A stretch of DNA of 64,000 nt from Candidatus Zhuqueibacterota bacterium. GTDB taxonomy: Bacteria; Zhuqueibacterota; Zhuqueibacteria; Zhuqueibacterales; Geothermadaptataceae. The notes beneath the pieces are model-generated. The model saw only the letters and a program-made list of their open reading frames with translations. It ran no database searches and was not told the origin of the DNA. The position numbers were made by a program, and so were the translations under genes. Location: the NCBI GenBank assembly GCA_030950365.1, contig JAUZRQ010000091.1, forward strand, positions 20,820 through 84,819, in the 5' to 3' direction. Shown here in pieces: positions 1-40,238 of this stretch; position 1 is the stretch's first letter, and each line of letters starts with the position of its first letter.

Positions 1-308
1 AACGAGCCGAACAAAGCTAAGGTCTCGCTGGGCGTCAGTTCCGGTGAGATGGCCGTGGTTTGCAACTGTGCACCGATGCGCTCTTTGAGCTGCCCCGGCG
101 ATTTCTGCGGATCCACACCAAGGACGGTTAAGCGGCCATGCGTCGGCTGCCGCAGGCCCTCGATGATCTCCACCAGCGTGGTTTTTCCCGCGCCATTGGG
201 CCCGAGAATACCGACGATGCCCCCGGCTTCGATTTCGAGATCGATGCCTTTCAGAGCCTCCACGTTATCGTATTTTTTCATCAAATTGGATATGGACACA
301 ATTGCCAT
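1..308 (-). CDS. ABC transporter ATP-binding protein, N-terminal part (gene runs off the window start)
   Basis: Absent from the ORF track because there is no stop codon in the window. Reverse-strand ATG at 308-306 opens MAIVSISNLMKKYDNVEALKGIDLEIEAGGIVGILGPNGAGKTTLVEIIEGL..., which contains a Walker A GPNGAGKTT. The + strand ORFs 49..495 and 138..488 are its antisense. Confidence 0.85.
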   Translation of the reverse strand, partial: MAIVSISNLMKKYDNVEALKGIDLEIEAGGIVGILGPNGAGKTTLVEIIEGLRQPTHGRLTVLGVDPQKSPGQLKERIGAQLQTTAISPELTPSETLALFGS

Positions 309-798
309 GGTGCGATCTCCCAATGGCCAGGAAGTTTTGCTCGGCTTTCATCAAAGTTTTCGAAATTCAGGGCAACAATCTACAAAGATTTTGACGAGAT
401 TGCAAAGCCCAACCCGTCAACAGCGGTTAACGGGGCATGGATGGCGGCACAGCAGGATGAACCGCGGCAAACTCCCCTTCAGCATTAAGGATTAGACTTT
501 TATGGCAGGGTTTACCTTTCTCGTAACCATGCAGTACAAAGAGCAGAATTCATATCCGCCTTTACCAACGCGTGTCTATAGCCAGCACAGAGGTTAGCTC
601 CGCGGCGGCGCAATCTCCTTGTGCAATACACGGAGATCGTCCCTTATCTGCCCGCCCAGCAGAAACTCACCATGACGGGTCTGATCACAGTTTTTAGTTG
701 ACATTAAACCGTTTGCGATATGGCCAACGCTATAGATTTTTGTTTCCTCTCCGATTTATTCAAACAAAATCAAACTATTAATATCGTTCACTGACCAC

Positions 799-1689
799 AT
801 GGCCATGCGGAAATCCATTTTGGTTTTGACAGGTATCGTTCTCATTCTTTCTGGCTGTAGCCCCTGGCTGGCGGATCACCGGCCGGACACGCGCAAGGCA
901 CTGCCCGGACTGGAACACGTGCAATCCTTTGCCGTGGTTTACCAGCACATCGAACCGGACCAGCTCATGCCATTTGACATGGTGATCCTCGAAGCCGAAC
1001 ACTACCGCGCGGAGGAAATCGAACAATTGCGCCGGGCTGGCAAAACCGTGATCGGCTATGTCAATGTGGGCGAAATCGAAGCCTATCGCGTCTTCGCAAA
1101 TCAGGTACCAGAACGCTGGAAACTGGCTGACAATCAGCACTGGCCCGGGCACACATTCATCAATCCCGGCTGGAAGGGCTGGCGGATTCTATTACGAGAC
1201 TATGTTCTGGATCGCATGCGTGAAAAAGGCTTCCACGGTCTTTTTTTGGACAGTGTCGATCTGGCAGCTCCTTGGCGTTTTCCGAAAACACGCGCGGACA
1301 TGGTGAAATTGATTCGCTGGCTCCACCGGGAGTATCCGGAAATGATGTTAATTTTAAACAACGGGCTATTTATTCTCAATGATCTGGTCGATTCTATTCA
1401 TGGTTTACTTATCGAGGAATTGTTTTTCACCATAGATCAGGAAGGTCGCTACACGGTGCGCCCTACGAGCAATCGCATCACGCTGTTGAAAGACATTTTG
1501 CGGGCCAAAACGCGCTGGAATCTGCCCGTGTTTCTGGTGGATTATTGCCCGGCACCGCCACCACAAATCTGTCACGACATCAAACGCGTATCGGGCCTTC
1601 TGGGGCTTCCGCATTTCGTGACCGATTATTACCTGACCCAATTGTATCCGGAGATCAACGTAGCGCCCGTGGAGGTACAACAGGAATAA
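799..1689 (+). CDS. Lipoprotein with TM1410/GH114-like glycoside hydrolase fold (PelA hydrolase-domain-like, stand-alone)
   Basis: Signal peptide plus lipobox (VLILSGC). Motifs GYVNVGEIE and GLFLDSVD are typical of the PF03537-type endo-alpha-1,4-polygalactosaminidase/PelA hydrolase fold. First gene of the Pel-like operon. Confidence 0.7.
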   Translation: MAMRKSILVLTGIVLILSGCSPWLADHRPDTRKALPGLEHVQSFAVVYQHIEPDQLMPFDMVILEAEHYRAEEIEQLRRAGKTVIGYVNVGEIEAYRVFANQVPERWKLADNQHWPGHTFINPGWKGWRILLRDYVLDRMREKGFHGLFLDSVDLAAPWRFPKTRADMVKLIRWLHREYPEMMLILNNGLFILNDLVDSIHGLLIEELFFTIDQEGRYTVRPTSNRITLLKDILRAKTRWNLPVFLVDYCPAPPPQICHDIKRVSGLLGLPHFVTDYYLTQLYPEINVAPVEVQQE

Positions 1690-1765
1690 TTAGTACGAAT
1701 CAAAATCGCAATAGGATCACAGAATGAGCCCATTTGGCCTCGCTAATTGAAATCTGGATTCAGGC

Positions 1766-2614
1766 ATGCAACTTCAATTTGAACACGGCGATAACTACAT
1801 CATCATCCGCTGCGAAGAACCGACGCGCCTGGATGCACTCACCAAAGATGCGTTTTTTCAATCGGTTATGGGGGTGTACCATCCGGGCAAGGCGGTGATT
1901 CTGGATTGCCACAATCTCGATTACATTGACAGCGCGGGCATTAGCGCGCTGATTTCGCTGCGAAAACGGATTGTGCAAAATGCAGACCGGCTGATCCTGG
2001 TGGGCCTGCATCCCGACTTGATCGACCTGTTTCACATCTCGAGATTGCACCGGGTTTTCGATATTATAGATACATTGGAAATGGCTCTGAAAAGCCTCAA
2101 CCAAACACAACGGCGAGAGTCTACTGCCAGCGTTACCGAGGTAAATCTCGTGGCCCAATCACGAGAGGGCATCCTGGTTTTGCAACTGGTGTCTCCGGAC
2201 TCCCTTATCGAAGCGAATAGTGTGGAGTTTATCGAAAAATTCAAACACCTTACAAAAGCATACAAACGCATCCTGCTTAATATCGATCATTTGAAAAACC
2301 TTGACGGTATGGGCATTGCCGCGCTGGTCCACCTGCAGTCACATGCAAATAAGCAGGGTAAGGAATTGGTATTTATTTATTCATCCCAAACCCTGAAACG
2401 GCTTTTTAAGATGTACCACGTTGATGACTTGTTTCGCAGTATGAACAGCATCGATGAAGCCCTGGCCGAAATGCGAAAACCAACATCGATTGAAAAAATT
2501 CATGCTGAACGGCAAAACAAGCCGCCTGTAAATCGCGGGAACCGAAACCATGCAGAGTATGTTGACTTACAATTCCTCCACTCAGCAAAAAAGAAAATGG
2601 TTGAATCCTTATAA
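1766..2614 (+). CDS. Tandem STAS-domain protein (anti-sigma-factor-antagonist-like, two STAS repeats)
   Basis: Two SpoIIAA/RsbV-like units. Unit 1 has LDYIDSAGISALISL (DSxG with Ser). Unit 2 has LKNLDGMGIAALVHL (Ser replaced by Gly). The 3' end overlaps the pelD-like ORF by up to 65 nt. Confidence 0.8.
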   Translation: MQLQFEHGDNYIIIRCEEPTRLDALTKDAFFQSVMGVYHPGKAVILDCHNLDYIDSAGISALISLRKRIVQNADRLILVGLHPDLIDLFHISRLHRVFDIIDTLEMALKSLNQTQRRESTASVTEVNLVAQSREGILVLQLVSPDSLIEANSVEFIEKFKHLTKAYKRILLNIDHLKNLDGMGIAALVHLQSHANKQGKELVFIYSSQTLKRLFKMYHVDDLFRSMNSIDEALAEMRKPTSIEKIHAERQNKPPVNRGNRNHAEYVDLQFLHSAKKKMVESL

Positions 2615-4037
2615 TAACGATATCCTTTTCAGCCTGGTCCTCTTTTTCCTGTTACTGGTTAGCATCAATGTCATGCTATATCCAGACGTACCGGGCTATC
2701 TCGGTATTCATCCGCATCCGTATCTCATCGCCATTCTACTGATGGCGGGACGCTACGGCCGCCGCGCGGGTTACCTCGCTGCGTTCACGGCCACAGGCCT
2801 CCTAATAGTTTATTTATATTTTGAGACTGCGCCCTTTTTCAACTGGACAAAGCTCAACTCTAATGAGTTCGTAGCGCCATTTTTGTCCTTTTTTCTCGCC
2901 GCCCTTTTCGTCGGCGAGATGCGGCATGCGGCCCTGCGCCGGGAAAAGAACCTGCAAGCTCGTAACGCCGAATTGACAGGAGAAAATCGACGTTTGAAAG
3001 AGCAACTGGAAGTGGTGATCCAGATAAAAGAAGAACTGGAGAATCGGTTAGTGGGCCAGCAAGATACAATCAATTCGCTGTATCAGGCGGCCAAAGCGCT
3101 GGAAACTCTGGAAGAGGCCGAGTTTTATCAGGCGCTGACCAAATTAACGGCCCGTTTCACCGGTGCTACCAAAGTCAGTTTTTATCTCATCGATTATCCA
3201 AATGACCAGATTCGATGTGTGGCTCGGTTTGGCTGGGATGATGAAGCCAAGAAACCGTTCACTCAAAAACTTGGCGAAGGTATTTTCGCGCTCGTGCTCC
3301 AGGAAAACCGCATCCTGACCATCAAAGAAATCTCCGAAAATTCGGAGCAGCTCGAGAAATGGGAACACTCGCAGGAAAAAGCATACGTGTACACACCGAT
3401 CTCCATGGGCTCGGTGATTATTGGCATCCTGACAGTGGACGAGGTGCCATTTTTAAAACTGAATATTACGATGGTACGCACGTTGTCACTAATCGCCGAG
3501 CTGGCCGTGCCGGCTTTGAAAAACATCATCCATTTTCAAGATTTGCAAAACATGGTGCAAATCGATCCGGTGACCGGGCTGGCCAAATACGAGGCATTCC
3601 TGGAAGATGCCGAAATCGAGTTCAAAAAAGCGGCGCGCTACCATCTGGATTTTTCGATTCTTTACTTCCAGATCGATGGCCTAGATGCCATCGAAAAAGA
3701 GCATGGCCATACGGCCGTGGTGGAAACGCTGAAATGGTTCGCGCAGCATTTGCGCCCCATGCTGCGTAGCATGGATATTCTGGCTACCGGCGAACGTCCC
3801 GGCGAGTTCTTTCTGGCCCTGCCAATGACCGATTCCGAAGGCATGCTGGAAGTAATCGAACGGATTACCGCCTGGTTTGAAGACACCCGGCGGCAATTTA
3901 CTTGGGGACCGGTTCTGCAATTGCACTATGGCGCCGTAGCCTACCATCCAACCATCAAATCGCTGGATCACCTGCTACGTCTGGTCAAACATTCGCTGCG
4001 CATCAACAAGATTTCCAAAGTCAGGCAGCTTAGCTAA
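2550..4037 (+). CDS. pelD: PelD-like c-di-GMP receptor (about 4 TM helices, coiled coil, GAF, degenerate GGDEF)
   Basis: N-terminal hydrophobic helices, a coiled-coil segment (NAELTGENRRLKEQLEVVIQIKEELENRL), a GAF-like middle and a GGDEF-fold C-terminus (IDPVTGLAKYEAF...DGLDAIEKEHGH). PGEFF stands in place of GGDEF, and an RSMD (RxxD-like) motif lies just upstream. The start is uncertain: ATG 2550, ATG 2559 or TTG 2601. Confidence 0.7.
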   Translation: MQSMLTYNSSTQQKRKWLNPYNNDILFSLVLFFLLLVSINVMLYPDVPGYLGIHPHPYLIAILLMAGRYGRRAGYLAAFTATGLLIVYLYFETAPFFNWTKLNSNEFVAPFLSFFLAALFVGEMRHAALRREKNLQARNAELTGENRRLKEQLEVVIQIKEELENRLVGQQDTINSLYQAAKALETLEEAEFYQALTKLTARFTGATKVSFYLIDYPNDQIRCVARFGWDDEAKKPFTQKLGEGIFALVLQENRILTIKEISENSEQLEKWEHSQEKAYVYTPISMGSVIIGILTVDEVPFLKLNITMVRTLSLIAELAVPALKNIIHFQDLQNMVQIDPVTGLAKYEAFLEDAEIEFKKAARYHLDFSILYFQIDGLDAIEKEHGHTAVVETLKWFAQHLRPMLRSMDILATGERPGEFFLALPMTDSEGMLEVIERITAWFEDTRRQFTWGPVLQLHYGAVAYHPTIKSLDHLLRLVKHSLRINKISKVRQLS

Positions 4038-4798
4038 TGATGAAGTGGGAAAGCTACATTCTTCGCAAAAAACGTGGACGCTTGCGCAAAAGCCAATTTC
4101 AGCCGCGAACGCAGCAGGAAGCCAAAGATGCACTTGCGCTTGGCATCATCGATATCGGCGATTATGTAGAGTTTTCGCTCTCGCTGGAGCCAGTGCTCGA
4201 CAGCGTGCACGACCCCGATCCGGACACGCGGAAGCAGGCGATCCAGACCCTCGCACAACGCCGCGATCCGCTGAGCATTCAGTTGCTGCACCACTTGTTG
4301 CTGGATCGGGAAGAGGAAGTGCGACTGGCAGCAGCGACCACTCTGGAAGTGATGGAAAAGGAAATGCACACGCGCATTCATCAACTACGACAGGCGCTGG
4401 AGGCCGATCCAAATGATCGCGATAAGCAGTTCCGCCTGGCCCAATCCTACATCGACTATGCGTCTGTGCTGTTGATGAATCGCAATCTACAACGATTCTT
4501 TTTGCAAAAAGCCCTAGCGTATCTGGACGAGTTGGTCGAGGCCGAGCCGGAAGAGGTGCGCTTCCATCTGGCGCGCGGTCAGACCTATCAATTGCTCGAC
4601 GAGCCTGGCAAAGCCTTAGAGGACTTCCGACGATGCATCAACCTGGATGCCAACTGCCTGCAGGCATTCATGGGCCAGGCAGAATGCCTGTTTAAGCTGA
4701 AGCAGTTCCCGAAGATCAAAGAAATTATGCAATCCCTGCCGGAAACGGAGCAGGAACATGAGGTGGCCGATGCACGGATATTTTGGATCGAAGGTTAA
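4037..4798 (+). CDS. HEAT/TPR repeat protein in the PelE position (no TM helix seen)
   Basis: HEAT-like repeats (DPDPDTRKQAIQTLAQRRDPLSIQLL, DREEEVRLAAATTLEVM) followed by TPR-like helices. Its ATG overlaps the pelD stop (TAATG at 4035-4039). Confidence 0.5.
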   Translation: MMKWESYILRKKRGRLRKSQFQPRTQQEAKDALALGIIDIGDYVEFSLSLEPVLDSVHDPDPDTRKQAIQTLAQRRDPLSIQLLHHLLLDREEEVRLAAATTLEVMEKEMHTRIHQLRQALEADPNDRDKQFRLAQSYIDYASVLLMNRNLQRFFLQKALAYLDELVEAEPEEVRFHLARGQTYQLLDEPGKALEDFRRCINLDANCLQAFMGQAECLFKLKQFPKIKEIMQSLPETEQEHEVADARIFWIEG

Positions 4799-7004
4799 AC
4801 CACAACGGGTTTGCGCCGTGTTAGCAGGGCTGTTTGTTGCGCTGTCCTACAGCTCTATCATTGCGCAACAAACAGTACCGCGTAAGGTGCTCGCTTTGTA
4901 TAAATCCAGCGAAGGCCGTACTGAAGAAGAAAATGAAATCGCCAATGTGATGCAATTAGCACTCAATAACCTGGGGCTGGTGGTAGTTTATCGTGACGCA
5001 GAAAAGCCATTGCCCCCCATTGATTCCTTAGCAGATTACCGCGGCATCATTACCTACTTTATAAACGAAGATATGCTGCATGCCAGACGCTATCGACAAT
5101 GGTTCAAAATGGCCCTGAAACATCCTTTAAAATTCGTAATCTTCAACAATTTTGGTGCTTATCGTGAAAAAGGCAGAAAAACGAACGCAAAAACCATTCG
5201 GGAGATTCGATCCCTATTTTCAAAATTGGGAGTCCGCATTCCATTTCGCTACATTCCAGCCATGAATGTTACTATTGCATTCAAAGACTCTACCTATTTT
5301 GACTTTGAACGACCATTGGATCACGTGGCTACCCTCTCAGAGATGCGGTCTATCGATCAGCGTAACCGGGTTTTGCTGAACCTACGGGATGAGGAAAATG
5401 GGATAGAAAATGATGCGGTCATTGTTGGAAAATGGGGAGCCATTGTCCAATCGGGTACGGCTTTCTGGCTAGATGAGAACACTGGTCATATGCAGTGGTA
5501 TTTAAATCCCTTTACTTTCTTTACCGATGTGTTTCATCTTGACTCCCTGCCCATACCGGAAATCAATGTATTGGGTGGTAAACGCCTAGCCTTTATCCAC
5601 ATCGACGGTGATGGTTTCCGGACTATTTCAAAAATCAATCGCTGGGATATGTGTGCGAAACTGATGCAAGAACGTGTTTTTGAGCGCTATCAACTGCCTT
5701 TTTCGGTCTCGGTCATCACCGCCGATGTGTCGCCTGAACTGTTTGGCGATGCCCATACCATGAAGACGGCCCGTGACATTTTCAGCCTGCCCAACGTGGA
5801 AGCGGCCTCACATGCCTACGCGCATCCATTCAATTGGCGGACAGGTTGGGTCGCATTTGATTCCATCCCGGGATACCACTTCGATGAAAAACTGGAAATC
5901 GAGGCCTCCATGCAATTCATTCAAGAGGAATTGCTGCCCCCGGGAAAGATCAACCGCCTGTTTTTCTGGACCGGTATGTGCAATCCCACCGAAGCTCAGA
6001 TCGAACAGGTTGAAAGCCGGCAATGGCTTCAAATCAATGGAGTAGCCGGATTTTTACATGAGGATGCTCCTTCAATTACCTCTTTTGCGCCACCGTATTC
6101 TCAAGTTGGCTCTCGCGTGCGAATCAATGCACGCATTAGCAATGAATATGAATTAACAAACCATTGGCACAATCCTTATAACTATAGACATATCATTTCG
6201 ACCCTTAAATTCACGGAAAATAATGGTCCCCTCACACCGGCCAATATCTACTTACACTATTACATCATGGAATTCGAGGAAAGTTGGCAGGCCCTAAAAG
6301 ATGTGCTCAAATGGAGCCTGCATCAGGGCTGGGCCTTTGTTTATACGTCCGATTATATCCGTATGGTACATGATTTTCTGAACCTGCGTCTGGTGCGCGA
6401 ATCTGGAAATGTCTGGTTGGTGGTCAATTCGGGCGCTCTGCGCACACTGCGCTTCCGCAATGAGCCCCGCAGCGTCAATCTGGCAGCTTCGCACAATGTG
6501 CTCGGCTATCAGCACCTTGGCAATGACCTCCTGGTGCACCTGAATGCCGCCCCCCGACACCGCATTGTATTGTCCGATACATCTGAAAATAAGATAAATT
6601 TATTTACATTCAACATGCTGGTGGATTCGCTAGCCACGACCAACACCGGGGTGAATTTGTGGGTAAAGGGGTACGGCGAATTTGAGGCCCGTCTGCGACA
6701 TGTGAAACCGGGCCGCTATTACCGCGCCGTGGCCGAGCCCCTATCTTCGACGGATAGAGCCGACTGGCCCATTCAGCGGGCGGCCTATTACCGAAGCGAT
6801 GATTTTGGACAATTGACTGTGCGCGTTCCCGTGCACAACGCATCCCGAGTACGAATCTCCGAAGTGCCGATATGGGTTTACTGGAAACATAAGCTACGCA
6901 TCGTTGTGCTGATTGCTCTGACCATGCTGGCCTTTATCTGGTATCAAAAACGAGAAAGCAAGCCGGTGCCATTGTCCGGGTTGGACAACCGCAACGGCAG
7001 ATAG
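4758..7004 (+). CDS. Secreted, C-terminally anchored polysaccharide deacetylase-like protein (PelA deacetylase-domain-like, CE4-type motifs)
   Basis: Signal peptide (CAVLAGLFVALSYSSIIAQQ). CE4-like motifs FIHIDGDGF (Asp pair) and ASHAYAHP (H-x3-H). C-terminal TM helix (LRIVVLIALTMLAFIWY). Overlaps the preceding gene by 41 nt. Confidence 0.6.
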   Translation: MRWPMHGYFGSKVKPQRVCAVLAGLFVALSYSSIIAQQTVPRKVLALYKSSEGRTEEENEIANVMQLALNNLGLVVVYRDAEKPLPPIDSLADYRGIITYFINEDMLHARRYRQWFKMALKHPLKFVIFNNFGAYREKGRKTNAKTIREIRSLFSKLGVRIPFRYIPAMNVTIAFKDSTYFDFERPLDHVATLSEMRSIDQRNRVLLNLRDEENGIENDAVIVGKWGAIVQSGTAFWLDENTGHMQWYLNPFTFFTDVFHLDSLPIPEINVLGGKRLAFIHIDGDGFRTISKINRWDMCAKLMQERVFERYQLPFSVSVITADVSPELFGDAHTMKTARDIFSLPNVEAASHAYAHPFNWRTGWVAFDSIPGYHFDEKLEIEASMQFIQEELLPPGKINRLFFWTGMCNPTEAQIEQVESRQWLQINGVAGFLHEDAPSITSFAPPYSQVGSRVRINARISNEYELTNHWHNPYNYRHIISTLKFTENNGPLTPANIYLHYYIMEFEESWQALKDVLKWSLHQGWAFVYTSDYIRMVHDFLNLRLVRESGNVWLVVNSGALRTLRFRNEPRSVNLAASHNVLGYQHLGNDLLVHLNAAPRHRIVLSDTSENKINLFTFNMLVDSLATTNTGVNLWVKGYGEFEARLRHVKPGRYYRAVAEPLSSTDRADWPIQRAAYYRSDDFGQLTVRVPVHNASRVRISEVPIWVYWKHKLRIVVLIALTMLAFIWYQKRESKPVPLSGLDNRNGR

Positions 7005-7030
7005 CCAACCACCAAACCCTAGAAAATGCC

Positions 7031-8440
7031 ATGCGCGTTTGTTTGATCATCGAAGGAGCATATCCGTACATCGTCGGCGGTGTATCCGTCTGGGTGCATT
7101 TGCTGATCCAGAATTTGCCGCACATCGAGTTCGTGATCTGGACGATCACGCCAGAGCGCGGCCAGCCGCTGAAATATGAACTGCCGCCCAATGTGGTGGA
7201 ACACATCGAGGTCGCACTGGACACGAAGCTACCGCTGCATGCTCGCAAAAAACGTACGCGCAGCCAGTGGCAAATCATCCAGCATTTTCATCAGGACATG
7301 GATGAAGGCCGGATTCAATTTTTTCATGATTTCCTGCACCAGTTTTTGCCCCACGATCCGGCCGGGCTTTCGGTAGAAAACGTGTTCCATGATTTCGAAT
7401 CGTGGCAGTTGCTAAAAGACATGTACGAAAAACATCATCCCATCACCCCGTTCATCAAGTATTACTGGACCTGGCGCGCCACACACATGCCGCTACTCAA
7501 AATGCTGCATGCACGCATTCCGCGCGCGGATGTGTACCATGCCGTGTCCACCGGCTATGCCGGCTTGCTCGGCGCCATGGCGAAAATCCGCACCGGCCGG
7601 CCGTTCATCCTGACCGAGCATGGCATTTATGCTAAAGAGCGAGAGATGGAGATCAACCAATCGGATGTGCACACCGGCTACGAACGCGAAATGTGGAAAA
7701 ACATGTTCCGGTCGCTGGCAAAAATCGCCTACACGCACGCCGACCGTATCATCGCGCTGTTTCAGAAAAACCAGAACCTGCAGCTCAGTCTCGGCGCGCC
7801 TCCCGAACGCTGTTTTGTCATCCCGAACGGCATCCGCGTGCGTGATTTTTTGAACCTGGAGCCGCGTCCACACGAGCATTTCAATGTGGGATTCATTGGT
7901 CGGTTGGTGCCGATCAAAGATGTGAAAAATTTTGTGTTGGCGGCGCGCATCATCCGCGATGCCCTGCCGCAGGCGCGCTTTTACATCATCGGGCCACAGG
8001 ACGAACGCGATGACTACTTCCAGGAAGTGCAAATTCTGGTGGACAACCTCGATCTCAACGATGTCATCGAATTCACCGGCAAGGTAGATGTGAAAGATTA
8101 CTTTCCCATTCTGGATGTGCTGTGCCTCACCAGCGTGAAAGAAGCGCAACCGCTGTCGATCATCGAGGCGATGGTGGCGGGTGTGCCAGTGGTGGCCACG
8201 CGCGTCGGCGATGTCGAAGATATTCTGCAGCAAGATGGCATTGTGGTGCCGCCCAAACGGCCGGACAAACTCGCCGACGGCGTGATCAAATTTGCCAGCG
8301 ATCCCGAATTCCGGAGCCGCTGTATCAAAAACGCCCGAGAGCGCGCCGCGCGGACGTACGACTTAGACTCACTCATCCAGCGCTACGATGATCTCTATAA
8401 GGAATTTGCACAATCGGAGGCAGAACGATGGCGGGCATAG
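7031..8440 (+). CDS. pelF: Pel polysaccharide glycosyltransferase PelF (GT4)
   Basis: N-terminus MRVCLIIEGAYPYIVGGVSVWVHLLIQNLP (DUF3492-type PelF signature). C-terminal GT4 E-x7-E region EAQPLSIIEAMVAGVPVVAT. Confidence 0.9.
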   Translation: MRVCLIIEGAYPYIVGGVSVWVHLLIQNLPHIEFVIWTITPERGQPLKYELPPNVVEHIEVALDTKLPLHARKKRTRSQWQIIQHFHQDMDEGRIQFFHDFLHQFLPHDPAGLSVENVFHDFESWQLLKDMYEKHHPITPFIKYYWTWRATHMPLLKMLHARIPRADVYHAVSTGYAGLLGAMAKIRTGRPFILTEHGIYAKEREMEINQSDVHTGYEREMWKNMFRSLAKIAYTHADRIIALFQKNQNLQLSLGAPPERCFVIPNGIRVRDFLNLEPRPHEHFNVGFIGRLVPIKDVKNFVLAARIIRDALPQARFYIIGPQDERDDYFQEVQILVDNLDLNDVIEFTGKVDVKDYFPILDVLCLTSVKEAQPLSIIEAMVAGVPVVATRVGDVEDILQQDGIVVPPKRPDKLADGVIKFASDPEFRSRCIKNARERAARTYDLDSLIQRYDDLYKEFAQSEAERWRA

Positions 8441-24759: not shown

Positions 24760-25812
24760 TCAGAACCGTTCTTGCATTTTCCCCTGAATATCCTGCATAA
24801 ACTCCTGCAAACGTTCCAGGGAGAGGTGCACACCAATTTCCAGAACCAGAACCGGTACCTTGTCGGTTTTCGCCATGGGCTCCAGCTTGATCCAGTCCTT
24901 GCCGGTGGTCACCACAAAATCCGCCCCAGTCACGCGCCACGCCTGCCGGAGCTGTCGCCAATCGTTTTCCTTATATACATAATGATCCCGAAAGGCGAAT
25001 TTCTGCACCATGTCTGCGCCCAGAGTTGTCAGCATGTCAAAAAACCTGGCTGGCCGGGCAATGCCGGCCACGGCCACGACCCGGGCCTTCTTTAAAATGT
25101 CGGTTGCATGATGCCGCTGTTTGAGCGGCTCCCAAACGCCCGTCGGCGCAAACTCGATGAACGCCGTGGGACCGGCGAAATAGGGTTGCCACGGCTGCCG
25201 TTGAGCGTCCACGGTTTGGCCGGAAATCCAGAGCCAGTGGGCGCGCCGGAGTGAACGCAGCGGCTCCCGGAAAAATCCGGCCGGCAAAAGATGCGGCGCC
25301 GCCCGATACTGCGCCGGGTCGAACAGCACCAGGTCGAGATCCCGGCGCAACCGGCGATGCTGAAAACCGTCATCGAGCAGGATCACCCGCACGCCGAAAT
25401 CGCGCACCAGGATCCGGCCGCCCCGCACCCGGTCTTCATCGACCACCACAGGCACCTGCTGGGTGCGCAACGCCAGCCAGTACGGCTCGTCGCCGACTTC
25501 CTGTGGGGTGCACAGCGGCCCCTCGCCGCGGGAAACCAGCACCGTGCCGCGTGTACGCCGGCCGTAGCCGCGAGACAAAATGCCCACGCGAACCCCGGCG
25601 CGCGTGAGTTCCTGGCTTAAAAACAGCGTCACCGGAGTTTTGCCCGTGCCGCCGACCGAAATATTGCCGACGCTGATCACCAGCGCCTCCACCGCATGGT
25701 TTTCCAACCATCCGCGGTCATACGCGGCATTTCGCAGGGCAATGCCCAGGCCGTACAACAGCGAAAGCGGCCACAGCACTGCTTGCACGAGCTTATTTTC
25801 AAAAATAGGCAT
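24760..25812 (-). CDS. lpxK: Tetraacyldisaccharide 4'-kinase
   Basis: The N-terminal membrane helix, then VISVGNISVGGTGKTP (P-loop), is the typical LpxK signature. Lies in a lipid A gene cluster. Confidence 0.9.
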   Translation of the reverse strand: MPIFENKLVQAVLWPLSLLYGLGIALRNAAYDRGWLENHAVEALVISVGNISVGGTGKTPVTLFLSQELTRAGVRVGILSRGYGRRTRGTVLVSRGEGPLCTPQEVGDEPYWLALRTQQVPVVVDEDRVRGGRILVRDFGVRVILLDDGFQHRRLRRDLDLVLFDPAQYRAAPHLLPAGFFREPLRSLRRAHWLWISGQTVDAQRQPWQPYFAGPTAFIEFAPTGVWEPLKQRHHATDILKKARVVAVAGIARPARFFDMLTTLGADMVQKFAFRDHYVYKENDWRQLRQAWRVTGADFVVTTGKDWIKLEPMAKTDKVPVLVLEIGVHLSLERLQEFMQDIQGKMQERF

Positions 25813-26458
25813 CTGCCTGGCGTTCCTGCTCGATCATTTTCTGTTCCATTTGCCGGCGGAAGGCCTCGAAGGCTTCGCCTTCCAGATCGGCAGGCACGGC
25901 GATGGGCTCGGAATAGATCGCCACACTGCGGCTGAAAGGCTTCCATAAATAAAACCGATCCCAGGAGCGGAATTGCACATAGCGGCTGGAGGCATAGGTG
26001 AGCAACAACAGGTAGGCGCCGGATTTGCTGGCTAGCGAGATGGCGCCGGGCTTGAACACATGGCGCGGGCCGGTGGGGCCGTCCGGCATAATGGCGGCGG
26101 CCGCGCCGTGGCGCAGCGCTTCCAGCATTTGCCGGCTGGCGCGCTTGCCACCGCGGGTGCTGGAGCCGCGGATGGTGCCAAATCCGAGCTTGCGGATCGT
26201 TTGCGCAATCATCTCGCCGTCGCGGTGCTCGCTGACCATAACCTGAATGTTCTGCCGCCGGTGGATGAACACCGGCAGCAAGATACGGCCGTGCCACACG
26301 CAAATGATGAATGGTTTTCCGCTTTCGCGCAATTGGAGAAAATGTTCCCGGCCGATGTATGTGATGCGCGTCAGGTGCCCGTAGAACAGGATGAACAGCC
26401 AGCCCAGTTTGGTGGCCATAAAAAAGATCAATCGGTCCTTTAATTTGCTTATTGGCAT
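25799..26458 (-). CDS. DUF374-type lysophospholipid-acyltransferase-like protein
   Basis: The track ORF 25799..26860 is trimmed to ATG 26458 (MPISKLKDRLIFFMATKLGW...). The discarded upstream 134 aa are Arg/Gly/Ala-rich and overlap lpxB. Motifs VWHGRILL and IMPDGPTGP are typical of DUF374 proteins found next to lpxK/waaA. Confidence 0.75.
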   Translation of the reverse strand: MPISKLKDRLIFFMATKLGWLFILFYGHLTRITYIGREHFLQLRESGKPFIICVWHGRILLPVFIHRRQNIQVMVSEHRDGEMIAQTIRKLGFGTIRGSSTRGGKRASRQMLEALRHGAAAAIMPDGPTGPRHVFKPGAISLASKSGAYLLLLTYASSRYVQFRSWDRFYLWKPFSRSVAIYSEPIAVPADLEGEAFEAFRRQMEQKMIEQERQADAYF

Positions 26459-27594
26459 ACCATCTCCGCAGCAATTTTCGCCACCCGCTCGGAAGCGCCC
26501 GGCGTGCCCAACTTTTCCCGCACGGTTCGCAATTTCTGTCGCATTTCCGCCAGCCGCGACGGATGCTGCAGCAGTGCGAGCATCTCGCTGGCGACCACAT
26601 CCGGCTGAAACGCATCCTGAATGAATTCTGGCACCACGCGTTCGCCGGCCACGATGTTGGCCAGCCCGATGTGATCCAATTTCACCAAACGCCGGCCGAT
26701 GGCGTAGGTCAGCCGCGACACCCGGTACACGATCGCCATGGGAGTGCCAAAGCAGGCCGTTTCCAGCGTAGCCGTGCCGGATGACACCAAGCACAGCGTG
26801 GCATGCTGCATGATGGCGTAGGTTGCGTGGTTCACCAGCGTCGCCCGCACCGACGGCCACTGCTGCAAGAACGGCCGGTAAAACGCCTCGTTCAGGTCCG
26901 GGGAGACCGAAACCACCACCTGCAATCCCGGATGCTGCTTCTGCATGATTTCCGCCGTGGCGAGCATGTCCGGCAGCAACCGGCGGACCTCCTGCTGCCG
27001 GCTGCCGGGCAACAATCCGAGAATCGGCACCTGATCGGCCAGATTGAATTTCTTGAAAAAGGCCGCTTTCGAGAGCTCCGGTTGCAGCCGCTCCAGCAAT
27101 GGATGGCCGACAAAGGTGGTTTTGAGCCCGGCTTGCTGAAAAATGGGCACCTCGAACGGGAACACCACGGCGAGGTGATCGATGATGCGCGCCATTTTAG
27201 GAATGCGTTTCGCACCCCAGGCCCACACCTGCGGCGCGATGTAATACAGCACCGGCACCCCGGCCTGGTGCAGCCGCCCGGCCAGGCGCAGGTTGAAGCC
27301 GGGATAATCGATCAAAATGGCGCAGGCGGGCCGCCGCTGGCGCACTTCCTGTTCGATGTGCCGGAACACGCGCCGCAAAAACGGCAGATGCTTCACCACT
27401 TCGGTAAAACCGATGATCGCCATTTCGCGGGTGGTGTACAACTGCTCCTGTCCGGCTGCCAGCATTTGCTCCCCGCCGATACCGAACACGGCGTAATCCG
27501 GCAAAATCTGCTTGAGGGCGCGTACCACGCCGGCGCCATGCGCATCCCCGGACGGCTCACCGGCAATCATCAAAATATGCTTCGCGTCGCTCAT
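26449..27594 (-). CDS. lpxB: Lipid-A-disaccharide synthase
   Basis: MSDAKHILMIAGEPSGDAHGA... is the canonical LpxB N-terminus. ATG 27594 forms an ATGA overlap with the upstream stop. The track start 27609 is a GTG. Confidence 0.9.
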   Translation of the reverse strand: MSDAKHILMIAGEPSGDAHGAGVVRALKQILPDYAVFGIGGEQMLAAGQEQLYTTREMAIIGFTEVVKHLPFLRRVFRHIEQEVRQRRPACAILIDYPGFNLRLAGRLHQAGVPVLYYIAPQVWAWGAKRIPKMARIIDHLAVVFPFEVPIFQQAGLKTTFVGHPLLERLQPELSKAAFFKKFNLADQVPILGLLPGSRQQEVRRLLPDMLATAEIMQKQHPGLQVVVSVSPDLNEAFYRPFLQQWPSVRATLVNHATYAIMQHATLCLVSSGTATLETACFGTPMAIVYRVSRLTYAIGRRLVKLDHIGLANIVAGERVVPEFIQDAFQPDVVASEMLALLQHPSRLAEMRQKLRTVREKLGTPGASERVAKIAAEMVCQ

Positions 27595-28166
27595 CCCAGC
27601 CATTTCCACCGCGCATAAATGGCCAGACTCACGATCACATAGGTCATCAACGTATCACGCTCGGTGCGCAGCGCACGCGCCCAGCTCATCACCTGCACAT
27701 CGTGTTTTTTGAACGGGGTCAATCGCGGAATGGCGCGTGGCACCTGTTTGCAATATTCAGCATAGATTTCGCCAAACGTCTTGCGCAGATACTCCTCTTC
27801 CAGCGAAACGATCATGCCGTATTGCAGAAAAAACAATCCCCAGAACACCAGCAGCATCCAAGGCATCCAGGCCCAGGCCATAATTACCAGACCGGTTCCC
27901 AGAAAAAAATTGCCCAGGTACAGCGGATTGCGCACGTAAGCAAACGGGCCGTGGGTGATCAGATCATCGCCGCCCACGCCGCTGGTGGTGCGCGTGGCGC
28001 CGCCGGCGTGGCGCACCGCCCAGGTGCGGAGCACCTCGCCCAGGATCACCAGCAGCAGGCCGGCCGTATAGGTGGTGGCCGTGGGTTCGGCAAAAATCAG
28101 CAGCGCAATCAGCAGCGGAATCGGCGTGTAACTGCGGTAATTGAAGAAAACCTCTCGAATGTCCAT
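27591..28166 (-). CDS. ICMT/PEMT-family membrane methyltransferase (LmtA-like candidate)
   Basis: Start trimmed to ATG 28166, which has a GAGGTGA RBS. Polytopic, with the motif HGPFAYVRNPLYLGNFF characteristic of the isoprenylcysteine carboxyl methyltransferase family. Confidence 0.75.
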   Translation of the reverse strand: MDIREVFFNYRSYTPIPLLIALLIFAEPTATTYTAGLLLVILGEVLRTWAVRHAGGATRTTSGVGGDDLITHGPFAYVRNPLYLGNFFLGTGLVIMAWAWMPWMLLVFWGLFFLQYGMIVSLEEEYLRKTFGEIYAEYCKQVPRAIPRLTPFKKHDVQVMSWARALRTERDTLMTYVIVSLAIYARWKWLG

Positions 28167-32723: not shown

Positions 32724-33371
32724 TCATTCAGCCGCCAGCTCCCGCACCGTGTCATCAATCGTGCCGATCATGTCTTCCAGCCAGTCGATGTCGCGGTACA
32801 CATCGCGGTGATCCGTATCGATCACCAACACACGATGTCGACCGGACATGCGCTCGGCCCATTTATCATACAGCATGTTGAGCTGCATCAAATACTCTTT
32901 GTCGATGATCTGCTCGTAATCGCGGCCGCGCTTGCGGATGCGGCTGATCAGCGTCCAGATCGATGCTCGCAGATAAATGATCAAATCCGGCGCGCGCAAA
33001 AACTGCTGAATCGTCTCATAAAAATCCCAGTACACCGAAAAATCGCGCTCGGCCATCACGCCGCGCTCATACAGATTGCGTGCAAAAATCTCGGCATCCT
33101 CAAAAATGGTACGGTCCTGGATGCAGGTTTTTTCGAGATGCTGGATATTAAGATGATCCTTTAAGCGCTCTTTCAAAAAAAAGATTTGCGATTGAAACGC
33201 CCACTGCCGCATGTCCAGATAAAAATCGGCCAGATAGGGATTTTCCACCACCTTTTCGTAAAACGGCTGCCAGCCGAAGCGGTCGCACAGCATTTCGGTG
33301 AGGGTGGTCTTCCCCACGCCGATATTGCCGGCAATGGCGATGTATAGCGGTTTCGGTTCTCTTTCAGCCAT
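32724..33371 (-). CDS. Deoxynucleoside kinase
   Basis: IAIAGNIGVGKTT P-loop followed by FYEKVVENPYLADFY, typical of the dAK/dGK family. ATG 33371 is preferred over the TTG at 33377. Confidence 0.85.
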   Translation of the reverse strand: MAEREPKPLYIAIAGNIGVGKTTLTEMLCDRFGWQPFYEKVVENPYLADFYLDMRQWAFQSQIFFLKERLKDHLNIQHLEKTCIQDRTIFEDAEIFARNLYERGVMAERDFSVYWDFYETIQQFLRAPDLIIYLRASIWTLISRIRKRGRDYEQIIDKEYLMQLNMLYDKWAERMSGRHRVLVIDTDHRDVYRDIDWLEDMIGTIDDTVRELAAE

Positions 33372-33546
33372 GTTCAAAGTTTAAAAGTTTTGCATCTATC
33401 TGCAAGCAAAAATATGATACGGCCCGATAAATTTTTGTCCGTTGGTCATTTTTTGAAAACTTTTATCCCGGCCATACGTCCATTGAAAGAGCTTTACCGA
33501 GAAACCCCGAATTCCCGTATGGAATGATTTTCAGTGGAGGTTATTC

Positions 33547-36642: not shown

Positions 36643-37626
36643 ATGAAAGCCGTTCTGGTGAAATCGCCTGGAGATGCCGATCAGCTCTATATCGGCGAAG
36701 CACCCATGCCCGAAACCGGCGATGGAGACCTGCTTGTGCGCGTCAAAGCCACGGCGCTGAACCGCGCGGACCTTTTGCAGCGACGGGGACTGTATCCACC
36801 GCCGCCCGGCGCTTCGGACATCATTGGGCTGGAGATGGCAGGGACGGTGGTCAGTCGGGGCAAGCGGTGCCAGCGCTTTCAGCCCGGCGACCGGGTGTTT
36901 GGCCTGCTGCCCGGCGGCGGATATGCCGAATATGTCGCCATTCCGGAAGGCATGACCATGCCCATCCCGGACAACCTGTCTTTCGAAGAAGCCGCGGCCA
37001 TTCCCGAAGCCTTTCTCACCGCGTTTCAGGCGTTGCACTGGCTTGGCGGATTTCGCGAGGGCCATATCGTGCTGATTCATGCCGGAGCGAGCGGCGTGGG
37101 CACGGCGGCGATTCAACTGGTCCGCGAGGGCGGCGGCCGTGCCATTGTGACCGCCGGCTCCGAGCCCAAATTGCAGGTCTGCCGCGCTCTCGGCGCCACC
37201 GATGCCTTCAATTACAAACAAGGCCCATTCGCGGAGAAAGTGCTAGAGGTCACCCACGGTCACGGCGCGGATATCATCATCGATTTCGTCGGCGCTTCTT
37301 ACCTCGATCAGAATTTGACCGCCATCGCCGTTGACGGACGCATGGTCGTGCTTTCGCTTCTCGGCGGCAGCGTGGCGGAGCGGTTCGACATGCGCAAGCT
37401 CATGCGAAAACGCGCGCGCATCGAGGGCTCCACCCTCCGCGGACGTTCGCTGGAATACAAAATCAAACTCACGACCGACTTCAGTCAGTACGCCCTGCCG
37501 CGGTTTCATAGCGGTGCTTTGAAGCCGGTCATCGATCGCGTGTTTTCCTGGAAGGAGGTTTCGGAGGCACATCGATACATGGAGGCCAACAAAAACATCG
37601 GCAAAATCATACTGCGGATCGATTGA
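36643..37626 (+). CDS. NAD(P)H:quinone oxidoreductase (medium-chain dehydrogenase, PIG3/Qor type)
   Basis: Full-length MDR pattern (LVRVKATALNRADLLQRRGLYPPPPG..., AGASGVGTAAIQL nucleotide-binding motif). GGGAGG RBS. Confidence 0.85.
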   Translation: MKAVLVKSPGDADQLYIGEAPMPETGDGDLLVRVKATALNRADLLQRRGLYPPPPGASDIIGLEMAGTVVSRGKRCQRFQPGDRVFGLLPGGGYAEYVAIPEGMTMPIPDNLSFEEAAAIPEAFLTAFQALHWLGGFREGHIVLIHAGASGVGTAAIQLVREGGGRAIVTAGSEPKLQVCRALGATDAFNYKQGPFAEKVLEVTHGHGADIIIDFVGASYLDQNLTAIAVDGRMVVLSLLGGSVAERFDMRKLMRKRARIEGSTLRGRSLEYKIKLTTDFSQYALPRFHSGALKPVIDRVFSWKEVSEAHRYMEANKNIGKIILRID

Positions 37627-37628
37627 TT

Positions 37629-40238
37629 ATGCCGCCCACGGAGACATCGTTTTCACTGCCCGGACGGCTGCACACCTTCGTTCGTGCGCTGCAGAACCTT
37701 CACCCGCTGCCGAAATCGTTGAGGGGCAACCTGCTGGGATGGAGCGGCACCCTGGTGGCCCTGGCGCTGACCACGGCCATGCACATTCCGGCGCAGGATC
37801 TGCTTCTGCTGATCTACTTCATTTTCCTTTACCGTCTCAGCCGACAACTCTGGGAGCGGTTCCGTCCACCCTATGAAGTCCTGATGTTCCTGTTCTATCT
37901 GTTTCTGATGCTGGATGGATTCATCATCCGCTTCACCAGCGGCGGCACTCCGGGGGCGTTCCTCACCTTCTGGCATGTTATTTTCCTCGGCCTGCTCGGT
38001 TTCGTGCTGACGCTGCAAATCACCACCAACGGTGCGGGCAAGCGCGGGCAACTCTTCTGGTTTGCCTTCTTGCTGATCATTGCAGAAAATTTCATTCCGG
38101 ATCAGCGGGAACTGCTGCAATTTTTCTTCGCGGCCCTGCTGTTCATCTCGGTACTGCAGCAAACCCGCTGGCTGCAAAGCCTGACGCGGCGAGAATGTTT
38201 TTTATATCTGCCCCTCTTGCTTCTGTTTTACAACTATCTTACCGGATGGCCGCTGCCATCTCTGATTAACATGCGGCATTTCGCCGACGCCGAGCTGTGG
38301 GCTACGGCACCGACCTACATGTTCATGGTACTGCAATTCCAGGCGCTGGCGGCAGCCGTAAAAATTCCTGTGGTGCTGGTGTACAATCATGCCCGGCTGT
38401 CTCGCAAGCTGTGGATCTCCGGCCTGTTTCAATCCACCTTTCCGCAGTTTATGCAATTTTTTGTACTATCGCTGCTATTTTATTTTCTGATCGCTGGCTG
38501 GCAGGCCAATCAACTCAAATGGGCGCTGATCGAGCTGCCCTCGGCGCCACCCGCAGCGGCATCCGATGATGGAGACTCGCTGGTCTTGCACCATCTCCGC
38601 GGCGATACAACCATTACCCTGCCCGGCTATGAACCGCTGTTGTTGTTACGTCCCATCCCGTCCGAAGGCATTCTGCGCCTGGATCCAGTGCTGGAATCGG
38701 ATGGAAACCGTACCGGCGCGCCGGCGTATTTCTTGTTCCGCAGCGTTCCGGATACCGCCGGACGGTCTTTTCAGTTGCTCCGGTTGAACCGCCGTTTCAT
38801 GAAAATGCTCGTTGCCCAGCGTCCTCCGCTCATCGGCAGCCATCTTGTGTCGCACTCCTATGATTTGCCGGCATGGGCAGCATGGCTATACCGGTTCAAT
38901 ATCCTAACGCCTCAGAGCGGTATCCACATCTTCCCGTTTTCATTGATAACACCTGCTCCTGCATCTCCTATTGCCGCCCCCTTTCCAACAATCAGAGAGG
39001 AAAAGGATGCTCCTTCCGTCTGGCCTTCTACGATGGGGGGAGCGCTGATCATTTTTGGGCGTGTGCTCGCACCTATGTACAATTTCGAGCTCAAATCCAC
39101 TGGCTTTTATGCCTTCGACATTGCCTTTATCCCGGATGCCAGCTTTTTCCGGTCTTCGATCTTTCGCTTTGCGTTATACCTGCTGGGTTTTTACCTGCTT
39201 CTCAACTTTTTCATCATTCGCCGGGTGGCAAAGCTGGGCGCCGAGATCAACAGCATGATCGTCCAGAAATTCAATCAATTGCGCCAGGGCGTGGCGCAGA
39301 TCGCCAGAGGCAACCTGGATTACCGCATCCATCTCGAGGGGCAGGACGAGTTCGTGGAGCTGGCGGATCATTTCAACCGGCTGGGCGGAGAGCTGAAAAA
39401 GAACATCGAAGAAGCGCGGGAAAAGGAACGCTTGCAACAGGAGCTGAAAATTGCGCGCGACGTACAACTCAGCCTGTTGCCCAAATCGCTGCCCGAGATT
39501 CCCGGCTTCGACATCGCCGCCACGCTGCAGACGGCCAATGAAGTCGGCGGCGATTTTTACGATGTTCTGCCCATCGGCCGCGACCGGTTTCTGATCACCC
39601 TCGGCGACGTATCCGGCAAAAGCACCTCGGCCGCCTTTTACATGGCGCAGTGTATCAGCTTGCTGCGGTTTGCGCCGGAATTCTCCACCGACCTGTTGGA
39701 AATCGTCAAGCGGCTGAATCGCTACTTCACCGATGCGCGCGTGGACCGGCAGATTTTCGTCACCGCCATTGTCGGGCTGCTGCAGACGCAACGCGGCGAA
39801 TTGCGGCTGATCCGCGCCGGGCACACGCCGCCGCTGCGGCTCCAGGCCAATGGCACCGGTGAGGTGCAGGAAATCACTTCGCAGGGCACGGGGATTGGCA
39901 TCATCCGGCAGGAACGCGTGTTCGAGCAATCGCTGCAAACAGTGTCGATCGATTTGCAGCCCGGCGAAACCCTGGTACTGTATTCCGACGGATTGATTGA
40001 AGCGTCGCGGCCGGCGCTGAAGGCGCATGCCGGGGGCAGCCAGGAGAACGTCGAATTCTACACCGAGGAGCGGCTGAAAGCCCTGCTCGCCACCCTCGCC
40101 CATCAGCCAGCACAGACGATCCTGGAAGAAGTGCTTCGGGATTTGCATGACTTTTACGCCGGCCATCCACTGACCGACGATGTTTCCCTGATGGTGATCC
40201 AGCGAGTCGAACAGGATAAAACATCAGGCACCTTGTAG
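37629..40238 (+). CDS. Polytopic membrane sensor with HAMP domain and PP2C (SpoIIE/RsbU-type) phosphatase domain
   Basis: ATG 37629 is preferred over TTG 37623. Many N-terminal TM helices. HAMP (NQLRQGVAQIARGNLDYRIHLEGQDEFVELADHFNRL). PP2C motifs ARDVQLSLLP, GGDFYDV, GDVSGKS and TDDVSLMV. Confidence 0.85.
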   Translation: MPPTETSFSLPGRLHTFVRALQNLHPLPKSLRGNLLGWSGTLVALALTTAMHIPAQDLLLLIYFIFLYRLSRQLWERFRPPYEVLMFLFYLFLMLDGFIIRFTSGGTPGAFLTFWHVIFLGLLGFVLTLQITTNGAGKRGQLFWFAFLLIIAENFIPDQRELLQFFFAALLFISVLQQTRWLQSLTRRECFLYLPLLLLFYNYLTGWPLPSLINMRHFADAELWATAPTYMFMVLQFQALAAAVKIPVVLVYNHARLSRKLWISGLFQSTFPQFMQFFVLSLLFYFLIAGWQANQLKWALIELPSAPPAAASDDGDSLVLHHLRGDTTITLPGYEPLLLLRPIPSEGILRLDPVLESDGNRTGAPAYFLFRSVPDTAGRSFQLLRLNRRFMKMLVAQRPPLIGSHLVSHSYDLPAWAAWLYRFNILTPQSGIHIFPFSLITPAPASPIAAPFPTIREEKDAPSVWPSTMGGALIIFGRVLAPMYNFELKSTGFYAFDIAFIPDASFFRSSIFRFALYLLGFYLLLNFFIIRRVAKLGAEINSMIVQKFNQLRQGVAQIARGNLDYRIHLEGQDEFVELADHFNRLGGELKKNIEEAREKERLQQELKIARDVQLSLLPKSLPEIPGFDIAATLQTANEVGGDFYDVLPIGRDRFLITLGDVSGKSTSAAFYMAQCISLLRFAPEFSTDLLEIVKRLNRYFTDARVDRQIFVTAIVGLLQTQRGELRLIRAGHTPPLRLQANGTGEVQEITSQGTGIGIIRQERVFEQSLQTVSIDLQPGETLVLYSDGLIEASRPALKAHAGGSQENVEFYTEERLKALLATLAHQPAQTILEEVLRDLHDFYAGHPLTDDVSLMVIQRVEQDKTSGTL

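Follow-up and report, generated by a model that had tools for sequence, protein, structure and literature searches.

The window analysed here, a stretch of 64,000 nucleotides of contig JAUZRQ010000091.1 from a Candidatus Zhuqueibacterota bacterium, contains a Pel-type exopolysaccharide operon with a putative regulator gene that we name STAS2x. This gene (1766-2614, + strand) encodes a protein of 282 aa with two STAS domains. It is located directly upstream of a PelD-like gene (2601-4037, + strand), which in turn sits between STAS2x and the genes for PelF and PelG. Because the pairing is conserved down to 25% identity, STAS2x looks like an undescribed, dedicated regulatory Pel subunit. We propose that it is a dedicated cytoplasmic subunit or regulator of the KSB1/Calditrichota Pel synthase, that it would bind PelD, and that it would possibly be switched by phosphorylation of Ser56. 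We estimate the probability of this reading at about one half. A two-STAS protein in a Pel operon, just upstream of the PelD-like gene, had been noticed in an earlier note made by reading the same DNA, and it is confirmed here by Pfam, by AlphaFold2 (AF2), by the PelF and PelG matches and by synteny.

Domains, fold and motifs of STAS2x

The assignment of STAS2x to the STAS superfamily is based on a match above a curated threshold and on a predicted alpha/beta fold. The Pfam family STAS (PF01740) matches the protein in two stretches with an E value of 2.1e-29 and 101.8 bits, for a cut-off of 22.6, and TIGR00377 ('anti-sigma factor antagonist') matches it with 84.7 bits, for a cut-off of 53.45. 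In the AF2 model, which was built on a 22-sequence family alignment, STAS folds are present at residues 3-113 and 127-237. Both are confident, with block-mean values of about 80-94 for the predicted local distance difference test (pLDDT), and the linker between them is disordered at residues 115-121. The predicted template modelling score (pTM) of the model is 0.47, and the relative placement of the two domains is thus unreliable. The top Foldseek matches were TM1442, a Haliangium antagonist, SpoIIAA and RsbV, with target-normalised TM-scores of 0.84-0.89 to TM1442, SpoIIAA and RsbV. No solved structure among these matches spans both halves of STAS2x.

The first domain, STAS-1 (1772-2104, + strand; residues 3-113), contains the best Pfam stretch (residues 5-106) and has block-mean pLDDT values of 85-93. 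It is SpoIIAA/RsbV/TM1442-like, and a profile search of the PDB matched it to TM1442 (8.8e-19) and SpoIIAA (1.5e-16) over profile positions 2-111. The second domain, STAS-2 (2144-2476, + strand; residues 127-237), corresponds to the second Pfam stretch and is modelled with block-mean pLDDT values of about 80-94. It is more divergent, with weak matches to MlaB, 4xs5 and RsfB over positions 123-239 in NCBIfam and PDB profile searches.

The motifs DSAG and DGMG, quoted in the earlier note for STAS-1 and STAS-2, are indeed present in LDYIDSAGISAL (residues 51-62) and LKNLDGMGIAAL (residues 176-187), respectively. A serine in DSxG context at the N-terminus of helix alpha-2 is found in STAS-1 (D55-S56-A-G) and not in the STAS-2 domain of the window (D180-G181). 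Ser56 (codon 1931-1933, + strand) is at the canonical phospho-serine position. In a profile alignment it falls onto Ser59 of TM1442, which we take to be the phosphorylated residue of that protein. At the equivalent position of STAS-2, Gly181 (codon 2306-2308, + strand) replaces the Ser of most relatives. The protein ends with a tail (2477-2611, + strand; residues 238-282) that is predicted to be disordered from about residue 252, with pLDDT below 50 at residues 252-278 and 280-282. Within this tail lies the motif Y265-V-D-L-Q-F-L271 (2558-2578, + strand), for which the family consensus is [FY]xD[LIV]x[FY]L.

Conservation of the STAS2x family

A word-indexed search with STAS2x returned 5 relatives, and when 1.84 billion representatives were searched exhaustively with an HMMER profile, 16 were returned at E <= 1e-30. 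Fourteen of these 16 top representatives are 250-304 aa long and are matched along most of their length. Below them the scores drop to generic single-domain STAS proteins. The family amounts to about 16 clusters at 50% identity with 1-5 sequences per cluster, and its members come from metagenome-assembled genomes labelled candidate division KSB1, Calditrichota, 'Bacteroidota bacterium' or 'Deferribacteres'. In public records they carry generic names only, such as 'anti-sigma factor antagonist'; the database copy identical to STAS2x (P0001) is named 'MAG: anti-sigma factor antagonist [candidate division KSB1 bacterium]'. As judged from these searches and from the predicted fold, STAS2x is a small, discrete family in which a STAS tandem is followed by a disordered tail with a C-terminal motif. 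No second STAS gene was found in the window with the family hidden Markov model at E <= 1.

Conservation was counted on 28 distinct family sequences. The pair D55-S56 of STAS-1 is invariant (28/28), which together with the alignment onto TM1442 bears out the phosphorylatable Ser context that had been read in this domain. In STAS-2, D180 is likewise invariant. The residue that follows it is Ser in 20 of the sequences, Gly in 6, all belonging to the clade of the window, Asn in 1 and Ile in 1. The description of STAS2x as one regulatable and one locked half therefore fits the window's clade, where Gly181 is found, but not the family in general, since 20/28 members keep D-S in STAS-2. With the STAS-2 Ser lost in the window's clade, STAS-1 would be the sole switchable half there.

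About 23 of the 28 sequences have the [FY]xD[LIV]x[FY]L motif, after a variable low-complexity linker. Alignments A1 and A3 show no variation at its residues D267 and F270, and the substitutions in the motif region reflect purifying selection in the STAS frame. The motif is absent from two members, P0017 and P0018. The latter (locus L051, 796-1557), and similarly P0017, has LFGLIKLF instead of TRLHRVF. As a natural control, this side branch may help to tell what the tail motif does.

Linkage of STAS2x to pelD

A STAS2x gene is located immediately 5' of pelD in about 17 distinct loci, found from either the STAS or the PelD side, and this adjacency persists to 25% STAS identity and 32% PelD identity. 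Conservation of the neighbourhood in related genomes had been set beforehand as the test on which the earlier note could fail, and the adjacency held throughout these loci. In nine of them (contigs L001-L004 and GTDB-genome loci L005-L009), STAS2x is followed by PelD, PelE, DUF2194, PelF, PelG and PelB genes as far as the contigs reach. The same order is found for distant members of the family, namely P0013 (37% identity, L040) and P0024 (25% identity, L043 and L044). Two contigs of 1.1 kb (L039 and L042) contain a recognizable fragment of the PelD N-terminus just downstream of STAS2x. A search of metagenomes from the PelD side, which covered at least 5 loci, gave a tandem STAS gene directly upstream in 5/5 of the matches listed. 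One of these five is L049, on a 1.27-Mb contig and with 32% PelD identity. A tandem STAS gene is also directly upstream of pelD in L053.

The genes around this pair are far less constant. A GH114 gene is located upstream in L001, L003-L006, L008, L040 and L045, and upstream in L002, L007, L009, L043, L049 and L053 we found neither a GH114 match nor such a gene. From these six loci, the operon often begins with STAS2x, and the GH114 gene is an optional one at that place. The flanking genes are wholly different from one locus to another, encoding an ABC transporter, bshB/bshA-like proteins, a GT2 or cytochromes; the ABC transporter gene is divergent, upstream, and found in some loci only. The sole exception to the pelD adjacency is P0018 (L051/L052), where a thymidylate-kinase-like gene follows on the opposite strand. 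This non-adjacent member is also without the C-terminal motif and without the TRLHRVF motif. Found from both sides and over a divergent range, the synteny indicates that the STAS2x-pelD association is old, specific and two-way within this lineage. By comparison of these loci, the C-terminal peptide tracks the Pel context and the family goes specifically with Pel operons of this type. STAS2x itself is predicted to be cytoplasmic and co-transcribed with pelD, and the two genes are tightly coupled.

The PelD-like protein and the gene junction

The protein encoded downstream of STAS2x has the architecture of PelD, with an N-terminal transmembrane region, a GAF domain and a degenerate GGDEF domain with an RxxD inhibitory site (I-site). 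Pfam recognizes GGDEF, GAF and a MASE1/DUF4118-like transmembrane region, and AF2 predicts a single long helix (H88-167). The juxtamembrane stalk helix (2973-3116, + strand; residues 125-172, numbered from a start at 2601), which belongs to this long helix in the model, is the most conserved segment of the protein. Among 8 orthologues of 34-86% identity, 21 of its 48 positions are invariant, versus about 19% for the whole protein, and the segment, with the pattern RLKEQLE..IKEELENR..GQ..T..SLY...LETLEE, stands out as the most conserved one even at 32-34% overall PelD identity. Such conservation suggests a protein-protein interface. We infer from it that the stalk is a candidate docking site for the STAS protein.

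The c-di-GMP motif of the inhibitory-site type is RSMD (3765-3776, + strand), whose R389 and D392 do not vary in alignments A4 and A6. The degenerate GGDEF motif is RPGEF (3795-3809, + strand), and orthologues have RENQF, QTCQF, KPGQF, HSSEF, TEGEF or RPGTY at this place. With its motif in this state, the domain would presumably lack catalytic activity. With the model of the PelD-like protein, Foldseek gave two-domain matches to Pseudomonas aeruginosa PelD (4etx and 4dn0; about 320-333 columns, E of about 1e-8 to 1e-7) and ranked the GAF-GGDEF cyclase 4zmu above them. A sequence search of the PDB with a PelD profile returned generic GGDEF/GAF proteins only, and P. aeruginosa PelD was not retrieved. 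The protein is thus PelD-like by architecture, motif state and operon position rather than by specific homology. It can be considered a putative receptor of the c-di-GMP type.

The STAS2x gene had been described as overlapping pelD. An overlap of 65 nt requires the ATG at 2550 as the pelD start. In three close relatives the pelD ATG is found 8 nt past the STAS stop, where the window has ATC. We therefore place the start at TTG 2601, with ATG 2550 and ATG 2559 as possible alternatives; this TTG is unique to the window, and relatives have CTG. The pelD start has apparently moved (2597-2626), in what looks like a compensatory start-codon shift. When the window was compared with its two closest relatives, the synonymous/nonsynonymous substitutions in the overlap were 6/3 and 8/4 in the STAS frame, and 1/7 and 1/10 in the frame of the putative pelD extension. 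This frame-specific pattern indicates that the stretch is selected as a STAS C-terminus and not as a PelD N-terminus. Taken together, the start codons and the substitutions argue that the real overlap is at most about 14 nt. The 65-nt overlap was rejected as a regulatory feature, being probably a start-codon artefact. Elsewhere STAS2x and pelD are separated by gaps of 8 to about 80 nt, or overlap by 4 nt (L049 and L053).

Candidate kinases and phosphatases

Two PP2C genes are present in the window: a HAMP-SpoIIE/PP2C gene (37623-40238) and a SpoIIE/PP2C gene (63369-64000, - strand) that runs off the window end. Nearly all open reading frames (ORFs) of at least 90 aa in the window, that is all except those at 49-495 and 32724-33377, were scanned against Pfam. 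Among the scanned ORFs we found no RsbW-like kinase (HATPase_c_2), the kinases being classical histidine kinases only, and neither these ORFs nor the syntenic loci contain a sigma or anti-sigma gene. A tblastn search with RsbW and SpoIIAB queries, of limited sensitivity to very divergent kinases, gave no match in the window or in the Pel loci that it covered. As a control, the same queries matched kinases beside generic STAS genes in nine control loci. The earlier statement that the window encodes two PP2C phosphatases and no RsbW kinase thus stands for the scanned ORFs, but the functional link drawn from it does not, since these genes share the window with STAS2x and are never syntenic with it. 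They were rejected as cognate phosphatases for want of synteny support. With no kinase or phosphatase gene linked to STAS2x, such an enzyme, if one acts on it, must be encoded at another place in the genome.

Another locus is informative about the lineage. In L011, from a metagenome-assembled KSB1/Zhuqueibacterota genome, positions 9836-14171 contain a STAS / HisKA-fragment / REC / GAF-SpoIIE / REC / STAS cluster. This cluster shows that the KSB1 lineage uses SpoIIE/STAS modules. After it, at 14208-15272, come three ORFs of about 120 aa each that match no Pfam family and could be divergent partner-switch kinases.

In the window, the SpoIIE/PP2C gene at 63369-64000 belongs to a dense signalling cluster on the - strand (55301-64000). 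The other genes of this cluster encode a REC-TackOD1 protein (55301-56767), a histidine kinase (56810-58003), a T2SSE ATPase with an MshEN domain (58013-59707), a REC protein (59715-60191), a GAF-PAS histidine kinase (60124-62064), an HDOD protein (62086-62955) and another REC protein (62952-63341). MshEN domains bind c-di-GMP.

Proposed role and alternative explanations

We propose that STAS2x would bind the cytoplasmic face of the Pel complex. The likeliest sites are the PelD stalk, which seems the most plausible, and the GAF-GGDEF region, and the C-terminal [FY]xD[LIV]x[FY]L peptide may dock on PelD or on PelE, the HEAT/TPR protein. STAS2x would thereby gate or tune the activation of PelF/PelG by PelD. 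Less certainly, the canonical Ser56 kept in STAS-1 suggests that binding is probably phosphorylation-switched, with a kinase of the RsbW type and a SpoIIE/PP2C phosphatase, both unlinked, operating the switch. In that case Pel would be made only with c-di-GMP and the right phospho-state together. We put forward only tentatively the more explicit form of this idea, a coincidence gate in which STAS2x sits on PelD, or on PelE through its C-terminal peptide, and polymerisation depends on c-di-GMP as well as on Ser56 being unphosphorylated (or phosphorylated).

Several points weigh against a phospho-switched regulator bound to PelD. The STAS-2 Ser is dispensable, as it is replaced by Gly, Asn or Ile in 8 of the 28 family sequences. 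An invariant Ser/Thr at this helix N-cap is also known from STAS subunits, for example MlaB, that do not undergo phosphorylation. The gene tables of the syntenic loci list neither an RsbW-type kinase nor a PP2C gene, and the two PP2C genes of the window are 35 and 61 kb away from STAS2x, in other gene clusters. STAS2x could also have PelE, PelF or PelG, and not PelD, as its partner. In addition, the inter-domain geometry of the AF2 model is unreliable (pTM 0.47).

The main rival explanation takes up some of these points. STAS2x may be a constitutive structural or adaptor subunit, as MlaB is, with its tandem STAS domains paired as a built-in pseudo-dimer through which the PelD dimer and the PelD/E/F/G complex are stabilised or put together. 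In that case the conserved Ser would be an interface or helix-cap residue, and no phosphorylation would take place. Such a role would agree with the lack of any kinase or phosphatase found in about 17 loci, with the tolerance of STAS-2 to Ser loss, and with the fact that the best NCBIfam and PDB sub-matches of STAS-2 are to MlaB; the tight translational coupling with pelD also suggests stoichiometric co-assembly. However, STAS-1 is far closer to the phosphorylatable antagonists TM1442, SpoIIAA and RsbV than to MlaB, and its D-S pair is absolutely invariant while STAS-2 drifts. The lineage is, moreover, rich in SpoIIE phosphatases. On balance we regard a purely structural role as possible, if doubtful.

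STAS2x could also act as its public annotation implies, as a classical anti-sigma-factor antagonist that sequesters an unlinked anti-sigma kinase and thereby controls transcription of pel or other genes, its place in the operon reflecting co-expression or feedback. The SpoIIAA/RsbV-like character of STAS-1 would fit such a function, but we consider it improbable, as no anti-sigma, kinase or sigma gene was found in the scanned window ORFs or in the syntenic loci. It would also leave aside the strict and ancient adjacency to pelD specifically, which the C-terminal motif of the family tracks. Even less probable, in our opinion, is a sensor of small molecules whose STAS domains would bind a nucleotide, a nucleotide-sugar or an anion and report the metabolic state to the Pel synthase. 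Some STAS domains have been reported to bind nucleotides or anions, and sub-matches to the STAS domains of SulP and DauA are present in STAS2x; yet these transporter-STAS matches are weak, and scans that were not aimed at a ligand-binding signature revealed none. Finally, the evidence is wholly genomic and one branch of the family, that of P0018, lives outside Pel loci, so one could think of a passenger gene with no Pel role, next to pelD by local chance or shared ancestry. That the adjacency is kept while the flanks change completely and identity falls to 25% makes this hardly credible.

The Pel operon and its surroundings

The operon is considered as Pel-type because PelF and PelG are encoded together with a PelD-type receptor gene. 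Its genes are collinear on the + strand, in the order GH114, STAS2x, PelD-like, PelE-like, DUF2194, PelF, PelG and PelB-like. The first one encodes a GH114 glycoside hydrolase (799-1689, + strand; PF03537, E 2.7e-22) with a lipoprotein signal, which resembles the hydrolase half of PelA. The PelE-like protein (4037-4798, + strand) matches HEAT_2 and TPR families of Pfam, is encoded in synteny in all complete loci, and appears to be soluble, with no transmembrane helix on reading of the sequence. It is followed by a DUF2194-type protein of 748 aa (4758-7004, + strand). The window copy has no Pfam match, and its orthologues carry precomputed PF09960 (DUF2194) matches; this protein is possibly the counterpart of the deacetylase half of PelA. 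The functions of PelA are thus apparently split between the GH114 lipoprotein (799-1689) and the separate 748-aa protein (4758-7004). PelF, a GT4 glycosyltransferase (7031-8440, + strand), is identified by the equivalog NF038011 (354 bits, cut-off 100) and by DUF3492, and PelG (8428-9921, + strand) by PF16933 (E 1.4e-106, 357 bits). The last gene encodes a PelB-like protein (9812-11722, + strand) that matches TPR families and of which the C-terminal part, residues 239-558, weakly matches the PgaA TPR-porin. No PelC-like ORF was recognised within the operon. The architecture differs from Pseudomonas and Bacillus Pel types alike.

An Rfam scan of positions 1-12000 gave no riboswitch or other RNA at E <= 0.1. 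In the region 1-12500 there was no enrichment of sigma-70 promoters (8 versus 11.1 expected from shuffles) or of terminators (16 versus 14.3 from shuffles). A Peptidase_MA_2 gene (11993-12913, - strand) is convergent to the end of the Pel operon. It has the same placement in the relative L003, and it may be functionally linked to the Pel locus. Further downstream, two adjacent REC-DUF4388 proteins of 427 and 859 aa are encoded at 16257-20159 on the - strand, then a sigma-54-dependent response regulator at 22705-24081. The lipid-A genes lpxK and lpxB (24760-27609, - strand) indicate a diderm envelope, consistent with the PelB-like outer-membrane export protein.

Comparison with known systems and significance

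Canonical Pel operons are pelABCDEFG in P. aeruginosa and pelDEA(DA)FG in Bacillus cereus (PMC7112194, PMC7112168, PMC10269871). Like these, the operon of the window comprises PelD-like, PelE-like, PelF and PelG proteins, an outer-membrane TPR protein, and GH114 and deacetylase-type functions. Unlike these, it has a PelA split into GH114 and DUF2194 proteins, an apparently soluble PelE and no recognised PelC-like ORF, and no STAS gene has been described in the canonical operons. Two systematic surveys of pel operons mention neither 'STAS' nor 'anti-sigma'. In keeping with the earlier remark that STAS proteins were not described as Pel components, papers naming PelD, PelF and PelG in the literature searched were also without mention of STAS. 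In that literature, 'STAS domain' was joined with a word beginning with 'PelD' only in work on PELDOR spectroscopy on SLC26 transporters.

The closest parallels to the proposed mechanism are found in partner switches of diguanylate cyclases. SiaC binds the stalk of SiaD, and phosphorylation of its T68 blocks this binding (PMC8457831). HsbA/HsbD and BgrV/BgrR are further partner switches between a STAS-type protein and a cyclase (PMC8457831; PMC5085249). As in these three pairs, a small STAS or STAS-like protein with a conserved Ser/Thr at the N-terminus of helix alpha-2 is here associated with a GGDEF protein having a long coiled-coil stalk, and the output is a biofilm exopolysaccharide. In contrast, the GGDEF partner of STAS2x is a degenerate PelD-like receptor within a synthase and not an active cyclase, and STAS2x is a tandem protein with a C-terminal motif of the docking type. 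Its operon also lacks kinase and phosphatase genes, in contrast to the Sia and Hsb systems, which come with SiaA/SiaB and HsbR, respectively. The STAS2x-PelD pair is thus not a member of the STAS-cyclase modules, with GGDEF degenerate in all orthologues and no kinase or phosphatase in the operon, but it may work in a similar way.

Another parallel is All4160 of Anabaena, a STAS-glycosyltransferase switched by HenR and unlinked kinases (PMC13555669). There too a STAS phospho-switch acts on polysaccharide machinery with the kinases elsewhere in the genome, as is proposed here. However, the Anabaena STAS domain is fused to the enzyme, the product is the heterocyst polysaccharide and not Pel, and no c-di-GMP receptor takes part. 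SpoIIAA, RsbV and TM1442 have the fold and the DSxG phospho-site of STAS-1, but they are single domains beside an RsbW/SpoIIAB kinase and a sigma factor, none of which is present at the STAS2x locus. MlaB of the MlaFEDB transporter resembles STAS2x as a dedicated, operon-encoded STAS protein of an envelope-biogenesis machine, and it is weakly matched by STAS-2. It is, in contrast, a single-domain protein that binds an ABC ATPase, whereas STAS2x is a tandem and its Pel operon has no ABC ATPase. What is new here is the combination of a Pel operon with a regulator of GGDEF proteins of the STAS partner-switch type. Both kinds of element are known, and this is not a new category.

Pel is a widespread polysaccharide of the biofilm matrix. 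To our knowledge, c-di-GMP binding to PelD is the only known post-translational control of Pel. A conserved, operon-encoded STAS protein at the position of PelD would be a second candidate input, through Ser phosphorylation or partner switching, at the level of the synthase. It would extend the control by STAS proteins of GGDEF proteins and exopolysaccharide enzymes from active cyclases to a degenerate receptor. Because all the parts are within one 11-kb operon, heterologous reconstitution would be direct. If true, the coincidence gate would be the first case in which the target of a partner-switch component is neither a cyclase nor a sigma factor, but a c-di-GMP receptor that is part of an exopolysaccharide synthase.

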